Origin: a phage
Length of the DNA stretch: 39,720 nt
Sequence record: PZ618370.1
Direction: 5' to 3' (one strand)
The translations under genes were made by a program, and so were the position numbers. Positions 16,346-24,042 of the stretch are shown in pieces (position 1 is the stretch's first letter; each line of letters opens with the position of its first letter). The notes beneath the pieces were generated by a model that was not told the origin of the DNA, ran no database searches, and saw only the letters and a list, made by a program, of their open reading frames with translations.

Positions 16346-16533
16346 TGGGCCATTATGACATCGCATACGAAGAGTTCGCTGAAGAAACACGCAGGCGTGA
16401 AGAGCTACGTCAGTCGCGGTGCGAACATCCAGATTGGGTACTTGTCTACTGCACGCAGGATGGCAAGCCAAAAGTAACTCAGTGCAGACTGTGTGGAAAG
16501 ACCAATCACATTGAATCAAAAGGAGAAATCTAA
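16345..16533 (+). CDS. hypothetical Cys-rich small protein (62 aa)
   Basis: ATG overlapping the polymerase stop (TAATG) after SD GGAAGGAG; cysteines spaced C-x11-C-x10-C-x2-C. Track ORF starts at GTG 16327. Confidence 0.5.
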   Translation: MGHYDIAYEEFAEETRRREELRQSRCEHPDWVLVYCTQDGKPKVTQCRLCGKTNHIESKGEI

Positions 16534-16823
16534 TGGCTATGACCAAACGTATGCGAGTTTCGTTCTCGCTGGGTGCTGTGTTGTCAACTGAAAACGCGGA
16601 GAACTTCAAGAAGACTCTCTGCGAGCTGAGCCGTAAGGTCCTCAACGGAGAGAAGACCACTGGTTTTGAGCGTAAGGCGGTAGAGGTTGGTGTGACTGAA
16701 GGCCTGGAAGCTGTAGTCGAACTGGTTTTCAAGAAAGGCATCGTAGATGGGCTGAAAGAAGACCTGAGAAGTTACGCTGACCAGCCGAGCTTTGGTAACT
16801 TCCGGGTGGAGTTCAAGCAATGA
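16533..16823 (+). CDS. 5.5: gp5.5-like protein (H-NS-binding family in T7)
   Basis: 96 aa, MAMTK N-terminus and size/position as T7 gp5.5 (from memory). Confidence 0.65.
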   Translation: MAMTKRMRVSFSLGAVLSTENAENFKKTLCELSRKVLNGEKTTGFERKAVEVGVTEGLEAVVELVFKKGIVDGLKEDLRSYADQPSFGNFRVEFKQ

Positions 16824-17029
16824 GTGAATACATACGGGTCCTAGTGGCCCTTAAGTCCTGCCCGAAGACCTTTCAGTCAAACTATGTGCGCAACAACGCT
16901 GCACTTGTTGCTGAGGCTGCGAGTCGTGGACATCTAAGCTGCCTGTCTATGGATGGGCGTAACAACGGTGCGTGGGAAATTACGTCTGCTGGCACCAAGT
17001 TCCTAAATCAACATGGAGGCTGTCTATGA
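16820..17029 (+). CDS. 5.7: gp5.7-like protein
   Basis: LKSCPKTFQSNYVRNNA.LVAEAASRGH.SCL, GAWEIT..GT.FL match T7 gp5.7 as recalled. Confidence 0.8.
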   Translation: MSEYIRVLVALKSCPKTFQSNYVRNNAALVAEAASRGHLSCLSMDGRNNGAWEITSAGTKFLNQHGGCL

Positions 17030-22112: not shown

Positions 22113-22135
22113 ACTAAACTATCACTATAGGGAGA
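22113..22135 (+). promoter_or_regulatory. phage RNAP promoter, strongest consensus copy (phi10-like, class III)
   Basis: ACTAAACTATCACTATA-GGGAGACC; +1 to +6 GGGAGA identical to the T7 class III initiating sequence. Confidence 0.9.
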
Positions 22136-22237
22136 CCAAGAGACAGACTCAAGGTTTCCCTATTACTTCAGTCCATACGGATTGGGCATACAGTAAGTAA
22201 TAAACTTTATCTTTCAATTGAATAGGAGAATTATCAT

Positions 22238-23281
22238 ATGGCAAACGTTCCGGGTCAGAAAATTGGTACAGACCAAGGTAAAGGCAAATCCAGCTCCGAC
22301 GCTCTTGCGTTGTTCCTGAAGGTATTTGCTGGTGAAGTCCTGACCGCATTCACTCGCCGCTCTGTAACTGCTGACAAGCATATTGTCCGTACCATTCAGA
22401 ACGGTAAGTCTGCTCAGTTCCCGGTCATGGGTCGCACCTCCGGTGTGTATCTGGCTCCGGGTGAGCGACTGTCCGATAAACGTAAAGGTATCAAACATAC
22501 CGAGAAAGTGATTACCATTGATGGTCTGCTGACTGCCGATGTGATGATTTTCGACATTGAAGACGCGATGAACCACTATGACGTGGCTGGTGAGTATTCC
22601 AACCAGTTGGGTGAAGCTCTGGCTATCGCTGCCGATGGTGCGGTTCTGGCTGAAATGGCTATCCTGTGTAACCTCCCATCCGCATCCAACGAGAACATCG
22701 CGGGTCTGGGTACCGCGTCCGTACTGGAAGTTGGTAAGAAAGCTGACCTCGACACACCAGCTAAACTGGGTGAGGCAATCATCGGTCAACTGACCATTGC
22801 TCGTGCGAAGCTGACCTCCAACTACGTTCCTGCTGGCGACCGTTACTTCTACACCACGCCGGACAACTACTCTGCAATCCTCGCGGCTCTGATGCCGAAC
22901 GCTGCTAACTATGCTGCGCTGATTGACCCAGAGACTGGTAACATCCGTAACGTTATGGGCTTCGTTGTTGTTGAAGTTCCGCATCTGGTTCAGGGCGGTG
23001 CTGGTGAGACTCGTGGTGAAGATGGTATCTCTATCGCTTCCGGTCAGAAACACGCATTCCCGGCGACTGCTGCTGGCGACGTTAAAGTTGCTATGGATAA
23101 CGTTGTGGGTCTGTTCTCTCACCGTTCTGCTGTGGGTACTGTGAAGCTGCGTGATTTGGCGCTGGAACGTGACCGTGACGTCGATGCTCAGGGTGACCTG
23201 ATTGTTGGTAAGTACGCTATGGGTCACGGTGGTCTTCGTCCTGAAGCGGCTGGCGCACTGGTTTTCAGCTCAGCGGCGTAA
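22238..23281 (+). CDS. 10A: major capsid protein 10A
   Basis: 347 aa; long identical blocks with T7 gp10A as recalled (DALALFLKVF.GEVLTAF, GKSAQFPV, HTEKVITIDGLLTADV, DIEDAMNHYDV, ALMPNAANYAALIDPE, IRNVMGF.VVEVPHL, HRSAVGTVKLRDLALER, KYAMGHGGLRPEAAGA). Confidence 0.97.
   Translation: MANVPGQKIGTDQGKGKSSSDALALFLKVFAGEVLTAFTRRSVTADKHIVRTIQNGKSAQFPVMGRTSGVYLAPGERLSDKRKGIKHTEKVITIDGLLTADVMIFDIEDAMNHYDVAGEYSNQLGEALAIAADGAVLAEMAILCNLPSASNENIAGLGTASVLEVGKKADLDTPAKLGEAIIGQLTIARAKLTSNYVPAGDRYFYTTPDNYSAILAALMPNAANYAALIDPETGNIRNVMGFVVVEVPHLVQGGAGETRGEDGISIASGQKHAFPATAAGDVKVAMDNVVGLFSHRSAVGTVKLRDLALERDRDVDAQGDLIVGKYAMGHGGLRPEAAGALVFSSAA
23260..23266 (+). other. candidate -1 programmed ribosomal frameshift site G GUU UUC near the end of gene 10A
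   Basis: Heptamer GGTTTTC 5 codons before the 10A stop; the -1 frame stays open for 50 codons to TAA at 23410-23412. Confidence 0.55.
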
Positions 23282-23412
23282 GCACCTTTAGCCAACCTAA
23301 CGTCGCTACAGTAGCGGCTGCACCTGAAGAGGAGACTCTAACTCCTCAACAGAAAGCTGCGCGTACTCGTGCTGCGAACAGGGCCGCTAAACTGGCTGAG
23401 TCAAACAACTAA
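23260..23412 (+). CDS. 10B: C-terminal extension of minor capsid protein 10B (full 10B = 22238..23412 with a -1 shift at 23260-23266)
   Basis: -1 frame hand-translated with no stop: GFQLSGVSTFSQPNVATVAAAPEEETLTPQQKAARTRAANRAAKLAESNN; comparable in length to the T7 10B extension. Confidence 0.5.
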   Translation, partial: GFQLSGVSTFSQPNVATVAAAPEEETLTPQQKAARTRAANRAAKLAESNN

Positions 23413-23416
23413 TTGA

Positions 23417-23455
23417 AACCCCTTGGGTGCCTTCGGGTGCTTGAGGGGTTTTTTG
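23417..23455 (+). terminator. late intrinsic terminator (T7 Tphi-like)
   Basis: AACCCCTTGGGTGCCTTCGGGTGCTTGAGGGGTTTTTTG: imperfect long hairpin with UUCG loop and T6 tract, near-identical in design to T7 Tphi as recalled. Confidence 0.85.
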
Positions 23456-23475: not shown

Positions 23476-24042
23476 ATGGCTCAATACATTCCACTGAATG
23501 CTAACGATGACTTAGATGCCATCAACGATATGTTAGCCGCTATCGGTGAACCAGCAGTCCTACAGCTTGACGAGGGGAACGCTGACGTCTCGAACGCTCT
23601 ACGTATCCTGCATCGCGTCAATCGTCAGGTCCAAGCTAAAGGCTGGAACTTTAACATCAACGAAGCAGCTGTCCTGACACCTGACATCCAAGACAATAGG
23701 ATTCGATTCTTGCCGTCATACCTTCGTGTAATGACCGCTGGGGCCACCAGCTACTACAGCAACATGGGTGGGTACCTGTACGACCTGTCCACCCAGTCAA
23801 CCACTTTCACCGACCCTATCACGGTAGAGCTTGTGGAGATGAAGCCATTCTCCGAGATGCCTGTGGTCTTCAGGGACTACATCGTAACTAAAGCTAGCCG
23901 TGAGTTCAACGCTAAGTTCTTCGGTAGCCCAGAGTCAGAGCTATACCTTCGTGAGCAGGAAGCAGAACTCTATCAGCAGGTTATGGAGTACGAGATGGAC
24001 ACTGGTCGCTACAACATGATGTCTGACATCGGGAGGGACTAA
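23476..24042 (+). CDS. 11: tail tubular protein A (gp11)
   Basis: 188 aa; A.ELSAVNDILA.IGEP, RIL..VNRQ.Q..GW.FNI, R.Y.VTKASR.FN..FFG.PE, MEYEMD.G.YNM match T7 gp11 as recalled. Confidence 0.9.
   Translation: MAQYIPLNANDDLDAINDMLAAIGEPAVLQLDEGNADVSNALRILHRVNRQVQAKGWNFNINEAAVLTPDIQDNRIRFLPSYLRVMTAGATSYYSNMGGYLYDLSTQSTTFTDPITVELVEMKPFSEMPVVFRDYIVTKASREFNAKFFGSPESELYLREQEAELYQQVMEYEMDTGRYNMMSDIGRD

Follow-up and report, generated by a model that had tools for sequence, protein, structure and literature searches.

A T7-type -1 frameshift site predicted to give a minor capsid protein 10B in a further Kayfunavirus genome

In T7, the synthesis of two capsid proteins through a -1 shift is a textbook case. 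For gene 10 of T7, PMC1635266 describes -1 shifting of about 10% at the sequence GGTTTTC, giving the 10B protein; the 10A/10B frameshift is credited to Condron, Atkins and Gesteland (1991), as cited in PMC1635266 and PMC5009743. The G_GU found at the X_XX positions of this site is a recognized peculiarity of T7, and frameshifting is reported to be influenced, by an unexplained route, by a CCCC of the terminator that lies over 200 nt 3' of the site (PMC5009743). In gene 10 of T3, an Ig-like capsid extension is made by -1 frameshifting (PMC5009743). Likewise, gene10b of K1F, the type species of the genus Kayfunavirus, is a -1 frameshift product that adds 44 codons, and fusions of GFP, SpyTag or an adhesin at its end lead to stable, labelled virions (PMC6277420; bioRxiv 10.1101/2024.10.11.617866; PMC13370021). 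The GenBank record of EcoDS1 carries the remarks "may be translated via slippery sequence" and "region of similarity to gp10B".

The genome in the whole stretch of DNA analyzed here (39,720 nt, hereafter the window) is that of a T7-like podophage belonging to the genus Kayfunavirus. In the capsid region, DNA identity amounts to 98.7% with vB_EcoP_SP7, 97.4% with Citrobacter phage SH3 and 95.9% with EcoDS1, while the closest database genomes reach only about 91 to 95% across the first 25 kb. On these sequence grounds, the window phage is classed as a further isolate or species of Kayfunavirus. The capsid locus is framed by the following features:

22113..22135, + strand: phage-RNA-polymerase promoter (phi10 equivalent) upstream of gene 10, sequence actaaactatcactatagggaga
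22238..23281, + strand: gene 10A, major capsid protein, 347 aa, 36.25 kDa, stop codon TAA at 23279-81
23415..23454, + strand: Tphi-like intrinsic terminator, formed by a UUCG-loop hairpin of 17 pairs and a U-run after it
23476..24042, + strand: gene 11 (tail tubular protein A), the downstream neighbour, which bounds the locus

The promoter was placed by means of the EcoDS1 "promoter phi" annotation, which maps to these positions (L001 314-336, offset 21799). The product of 10A matched the Pfam family Gp10A-like (PF21703) over residues 60-342 with an E value of 2e-105, and the gene is 96 to 99% identical at the DNA level to other Kayfunavirus capsid genes.

We consider it about 93% probable that this capsid gene yields both 10A and a minor 10B protein through a ribosomal -1 slip at GGUUUUC. 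The features on which this reading depends are the following:

23260..23266, + strand: slippery heptamer G GUU UUC (Val-Phe), in phase, identical and homologous to the shift site of T7 gene 10
23245..23278, + strand: permissive window for the shift, with the -1-frame TGA at 23242-44 upstream and the end of the 0 frame at 23279-81
23266..23412, + strand: 10B-specific tail in the -1 frame, QLSGVSTFSQPNVATVAAAPEEETLTPQQKAARTRAANRAAKLAESNN, with TAA at 23410-12
23338..23379, + strand: most conserved block of the tail, LTPQQKAARTRAAN, common to T7 and other T7-type 10B tails

The 10A frame ends with GCA CTG GTT TTC AGC TCA GCG GCG TAA (protein ...GALVFSSAA), and the heptamer lies in phase within it, with GTT at 23261-63 and TTC at 23264-66. 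Four sense codons (AGC UCA GCG GCG) separate UUC from the stop, which is thus the fifth codon after UUC. Since the -1 frame is closed upstream by the TGA, a shift is possible solely within 23245-23278, and GGTTTTC is the only slippery motif in that interval. In the alignment of related loci, the heptamer occupies invariant columns 30-36. The strict X XXY YYZ pattern does not hold for G GUU UUC, in which X_XX is G_GU.

The heptamer is not enriched in the window as a whole (3 copies versus 3.78 expected). Among the 13 in-phase slippery heptamers located in 43 putative genes, the one in 10A has the longest shifted frame (48 codons) and is the sole one from which this frame runs past the stop codon of its own gene. 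The combination of heptamer and open -1 frame is not a chance occurrence, the decisive evidence being evolutionary and compositional. A second in-phase GGTTTTC, at 16724, has a shifted frame that is shut after 16 codons, within its own gene, and was judged to be there by chance. An open frame of 48 codons is by itself not rare.

In the proposed mechanism, most ribosomes would translate 22238..23281 and release 10A. A minority, with tRNA-Val in the P site (GUU) and tRNA-Phe in the A site (UUC), would move one base back on 23260-66. In this tandem -1 slip, tRNA-Phe would re-pair perfectly on UUU and tRNA-Val at two of the three positions on GGU. The slipped ribosomes would then read CAG and 47 further codons before terminating at the TAA at 23410-12, just ahead of the Tphi-like terminator. 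The resulting 10B would comprise the whole 10A fold with a 48-residue tail and would co-assemble into the capsid as a minor species. From T7 and K1F we infer that the slip is ribosomal and takes place in roughly a tenth of translations. By the same analogy, 10B would be built into virions with its tail exposed, and it is probably dispensable.

Translation of the -1 frame from 23260 gives GFQLSGVSTFSQPNVATVAAAPEEETLTPQQKAARTRAANRAAKLAESNN, followed by the TAA at 23410-12, and contains 50 sense codons. The 48 new residues after Phe replace the last four residues of 10A, which amounts to a net gain of 44. The full 10B, join(22238..23266, 23266..23412), is 391 aa long with a calculated mass of 40.92 kDa, 4.66 kDa above that of 10A. 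Its junction reads AAGALVF/QLSGVSTF, and the tail includes SQPNVATVAAAPEEE and TLTPQQK and ends in AESNN; it is mildly basic (calculated pI, 8.6) and rich in Ala, Glu, Gln and Thr. These results bear out the preliminary description, which had placed G GUU UUC five codons before the 10A stop, had read the -1 frame as open for 50 codons up to 23410-23412 and had put the size of the predicted extended protein at about 5 kDa above that of 10A.

Searches with the tail itself returned little. The tail had no match in Pfam, and tblastn of its 50 aa against the phage collection gave none either, most likely owing to low-complexity masking. A search of the tail with 15 upstream residues against a set of 5.8 billion proteins was also without a match; this outcome is uninformative on conservation, because gene callers do not output frameshift products.

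The -1 frame is open just from 23245 to 23409, and ATG, GTG and TTG are all absent from this interval. As the frame has no start codon, the tail can be reached solely by a shift from 10A. This bears on the alternative that the tail is made as a separate small peptide or through readthrough of the 10A stop. A separate peptide is contradicted by the missing start codons and by the fact that no open reading frame is listed there, and readthrough by the next 0-frame stop, which follows about 10 codons past the TAA, as well as by the poor codon usage of the 0 frame (-31.8 bits over the tail). Both versions are effectively refuted by the sequence, and we assign them practically no probability.

Codon usage over the tail was scored with a model trained on the other genes of the window phage. 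The -1 frame scored +23.1 bits and the +1 frame -48.4 bits. For comparison, the other genes scored 23.0 +/- 8.3 bits in their true frames and -37.7 +/- 15.2 bits in off-frames, and none of the off-frame windows scored as high as the -1 frame of the tail.

The pattern of substitutions points in the same direction. In a frame-blind DNA alignment, the wobble phase flips at the slip site from the 0 frame to the -1 frame. Upstream of the site, substitutions fall at position 3 of the 0 frame (e.g., 4/1/0 versus T7). In the tail, substitutions between the window and T7 are distributed over the -1-frame codon positions as 14/16/28 overall and as 5/5/18 within 23330-23409 (binomial p = 8e-4). Comparisons with L010 and L032 showed the same wobble-phase behaviour as that with T7. 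Ratios of dN/dS lay between 0.10 and 0.43 for the -1 frame and exceeded 1 for both other phases, in alignments that were guided by -1-frame peptides and therefore favour that frame; the frame-blind alignment used for the wobble-phase test is free of this bias. In its evolution, the 10B tail thus behaves like a protein-coding sequence, and it does so in no frame other than -1.

Related loci were gathered through the 10A protein (78 loci) and through a degenerate AARTRAAN pattern (49 loci). Of the loci with a measurable gap, 41 carry a slip motif (N GTT TTY or A AAG) within the final codons of 10A, and in every one of these the 10A stop and gene 11 lie 193 nt or more apart. A -1 open reading frame of at least 42 codons is present in 42 of the 44 loci that bear the motif. 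Among the relatives without the motif, a gap of at least 193 nt was found in 1 of 32. In these motif-less relatives, the Val-Phe codons are the silent variants GTC TTC (Val GTC is found, for example, in the tail-less L030 and L033), GTA TTC or GTG TTC with no A AAG site, the terminator mostly follows directly after the stop, and the gap measures 59 to 113 nt in all but two. The linkage of slip motif and gap is strong (Fisher p = 8e-20, with relatives counted without phylogenetic correction). Furthermore, 41 T7-type tails with the conserved block were recovered; with the exception of L091, each of them lies in the -1 frame of 10A (40/41).

Two relatives retain the heptamer and have a disrupted tail, one through a 1-nt deletion (L008/L091) and the other through a TAG within the tail (L111). 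Either 10B has been lost naturally in these cases, or the assemblies contain errors. They are compatible with the view that the 131-nt spacer from the 10A stop to the terminator is what remains, untranslated, of an ancestral 10B tail, or that it is a 3' untranslated region preserved for a role at the RNA level, such as in mRNA stability or in the function of the terminator, the heptamer being simply the Val-Phe codons of 10A. The absence of heptamer enrichment in the genome agrees with such a view, as does the folding of the 201-nt region, which exceeds that of shuffled sequences (z = -3.6), mostly owing to the terminator. However, the third-position periodicity of substitutions in the -1 frame, dN/dS values well below 1 in that frame only and the gene-like codon usage of the tail all argue against an untranslated spacer. 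About 40 genomes, among which synonymous divergence reaches saturation, keep the tail open reading frame intact, and the whole spacer is deleted in relatives without the slip site. Moreover, in K1F, fusions to the -1 frame are expressed on virions. We therefore regard an untranslated remnant as extremely unlikely and retain translation of the tail through a -1 shift as the preferred reading.

Variation at the slip site among relatives is informative about the nature of the shift. The base preceding GUU UUC in the 41 T7-type tails is mostly G, with A in two and C in one. Such variation in the first base of the heptamer suggests that pairing in the P site is less important than the ability of tRNA-Phe to re-pair on U UUC. 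In L100, G GUA AAG takes the place of GUU UUC at the same codons, and the tail is retained. Sites of this kind are relevant to the alternative that the phage RNA polymerase slips on the T-run during transcription, so that 10B is made from a fraction of mRNAs lacking one U. Such slippage is formally compatible with the run of four T and with the distant-3' dependence seen in T7, although none of our analyses lent it support. For polymerase slippage to be productive, about 7 or more A/T in a row are required, whereas only four T are present here. Neither the G GUA AAG of L100 nor the A AAG of other relatives is a homopolymer run; both belong to the classical sites of ribosomal slippage, and the field treats the T7 event as ribosomal, following X_XXY_YYZ logic (PMC5009743). 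The probability that we would give to transcriptional slippage is close to nil, and a ribosomal slip remains the favoured explanation.

The terminator that bounds the tail is well defined. Its stem spans 23415-23452, with a G+C core from 23419, and folds with -25.2 kcal/mol (z = -4.95). The EcoDS1 annotation "terminator phiTE" maps to 23416-23451, and the element was also found by a terminator scan. The hairpin is conserved with T7 and partly covaries in the alignment. Depending on where the stem is taken to begin, 2 to 6 nt separate the 10B stop from the hairpin; an initial estimate of 4 nt had thus been right to within 2 nt, given a stem from 23415 and a core from 23419. A CCCC is present within the terminator at 23419-22, about 150 nt 3' of the slip site.

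Local stimulators of frameshifting were not apparent. Folds of 23267-23330 and 23267-23300 gave no proximal stimulatory hairpin beyond shuffled sequences (z = +0.46 and +0.02, respectively, for pseudoknot-free folds), and no SD-like element was found about 10 nt before the slip site. Likewise, no Rfam frameshift element was found at the locus, where a sub-threshold, terminator-like match to NsiR1 (E = 0.85) was obtained. As no local stimulator is predicted, the efficiency of frameshifting cannot be inferred from the sequence. If the shift is stimulated at all, distant 3' sequence, the terminator included, is probably involved, as in T7. The dnaX cassette of E. coli (A AAA AAG) resembles the present site in that tandem -1 slippage of bacterial ribosomes gives two products from one gene. 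However, dnaX has a strict heptamer, an upstream SD-like element and a hairpin 5 to 9 nt downstream, and none of these is found at the site in 10A.

An additional candidate for a stimulatory structure was considered and rejected. RNAalifold predicted an interrupted helix of 11 bp in which 23252-66 (GGCGCAcuGGUUUUC) pairs with 23352-62 (GAAAGCUGCGC), some 86 nt further 3'. K1F-type and T7-type clades differ by a double change from C-G to U-A at the only pair that is fully free (wobble-wobble). Over 22 distinct sequence combinations, this pair is complementary in 12 and mismatched in 10. This covariation was judged too weak, and classical stimulators do not take in the slip site itself. The helix is probably coincidental, because both arms are constrained by protein coding, and it seems very unlikely that it adds to the conservation of the block or to the distant 3' stimulation of frameshifting known from T7 gene 10.

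The site corresponds to the 10A/10B arrangement of T7, to which the preliminary description had ascribed the same kind of Phe-codon slip site; the T7 sequence agrees with this, as do PMC5009743 and PMC1635266. In both phages, G GUU UUC lies at homologous Val-Phe codons (T7 reads gtg gtt ttc aaa gtg gag taa), and a non-Ig tail sharing the LTPxQKAARTRAAN block stops shortly ahead of a homologous Tphi hairpin with a CCCC in it. The tails are homologous, most strongly over TLTPxQKAARTRAAN, and share TVAAxPEE...(E)TLTPxQKAARTRAAN. In contrast, the N-terminal half of the tail has diverged, and the tail comprises 48 new residues here versus 57 in T7, so that 10B is 391 aa long versus 398 aa in T7. 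The run of GGGGG that follows the T7 site is absent in the window phage, and the distance from slip site to terminator is about 150 nt, compared with more than 200 nt in T7.

Within the genus, K1F shares with the window phage a 347-aa 10A, the heptamer and a net gain of 44 codons. Its tail is identical at 48 of 50 positions, the differences being L to P and A to D, and its terminator hairpin is identical, with a trailing T-run that is one T shorter in K1F. Ig-like (Big_2) extensions of the T3 type are alike in that they follow a -1 shift at the end of gene 10 and are bounded by a terminator, some of them with GGTTTTC; many of the genomes with such tails slip on A AAG instead. In other Studiervirinae, these Ig-like tails are 82 to 94 aa long, and in a few genomes 176 to 470 aa, in contrast to the T7-type tail of the window. 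Indeed, Big_2 matches were detected in the tails of the relatives L027, L031 and L049 (E = 1e-8 to 5e-15), while the tail of the window had none.

As the 10A/10B arrangement is already known from T7, K1F and EcoDS1, the present finding is correct but ordinary and raises no new biological question. Its value lies mainly in annotation, that is, in a corrected coding sequence and a display site. The correct annotation would include a second CDS, join(22238..23266, 23266..23412), with the qualifier ribosomal_slippage, and the end of the tail (23409) would be the natural site for low-copy capsid display, as done in T7 and K1F. Most Kayfunavirus GenBank records contain only the 1044-nt 10A open reading frame and leave about 130 nt apparently non-coding, and some mislabel the 10A frame itself as "minor capsid protein 10B".

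The stretch from the slip site (G GUU UUC, 23260-23266 in the window) to the terminator encodes, in the relatives listed below, -1 tails that are wholly unlike the 10B-specific extension of the window. At these capsid-gene loci, the tail follows one of two kinds of site:

Tail differing from that of the window after a GGTTTTC or CGTTTTC site: L012-L022, L025-L027, L069, L073, L074
Tail differing from that of the window after an A AAG site: L031, L035, L044, L047, L048, L050, L052, L053, L059, L064

These tails are approximately 82 to 94 aa long. Several of them match the Ig-like Pfam domain Big_2, and a recurrent 87-aa type had no Pfam match. Some of these relatives have Kayfunavirus-like genomes in which the major capsid protein 10A is 93 to 95% identical to that of the window. 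The tail of the capsid protein resembles an exchangeable cassette with its junction at the slip site.

The longest extensions were found at two further loci, in which the -1 frame remains open for 470 codons past G GTT TTT:

L049: IMGVR_UViG_3300034349_000001
L060: IMGVR_UViG_3300034127_000003

In both, a Big_2 domain comes first and is followed by approximately 390 residues of unassigned sequence. For a T7-like capsid protein, a frameshift extension of this size would be unusually large.

At other loci, GGTTTTC is present and the tail is disrupted. In L008/L091 (IMGVR_UViG_2974615076_000001), a 1-nt deletion (GTAAGC to GTAGC) puts the tail in the +1 frame, and in L111 the tail is interrupted by an internal TAG. 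The disruptions reflect sequencing errors or mark natural variants lacking 10B; the latter case would accord with 10B being dispensable. L100 (IMGVR_UViG_3300013307_000032) carries G GUA AAG (Val-Lys) at the Val-Phe codon positions of the slip site and keeps a T7-type (non-Ig) tail in the -1 frame, an exchange of one slippery motif for another.

RNAalifold predicted an 11-bp pairing between the slip-site region (23252-23266) and the beginning of the conserved block in the tail (23352-23362). The sole wobble-wobble pair of this helix shows a C-G to U-A double change between the K1F-type and T7-type clades; other clades have a mismatch there (10 of the 22 distinct combinations).

A second in-phase GGTTTTC was observed elsewhere in the window:

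16533..16823: gene-5.5-like ORF, containing GGTTTTC at 16724-16730
16820..17029: gene-5.7-like ORF, in the -1 frame relative to the former, with an ATGA overlap

Following this site, the -1 frame is closed after 16 codons, short of the gene-5.7-like ORF, and the motif is probably a chance occurrence. A "possible gene 5.5-5.7" fusion is annotated in T7, but its site differs from that in the window.

In GenBank, the product names given to the 1044-nt 10A ORF are "minor capsid protein (10B)," "hypothetical protein," and "capsid and scaffold protein" (PQ133619, OM867676, and related PRF-SP/STP-SP/CRW-SP Salmonella phages; MT682707; OM937123). A frameshift CDS was annotated in none of the four records inspected, namely, those with accession numbers.

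A further observation concerns the opposite strand:

22214..23227, minus strand: 337-aa ORF antisense to nearly all of gene 10

Most likely, this ORF is not a gene and arises as a by-product of strong codon bias in the capsid gene.
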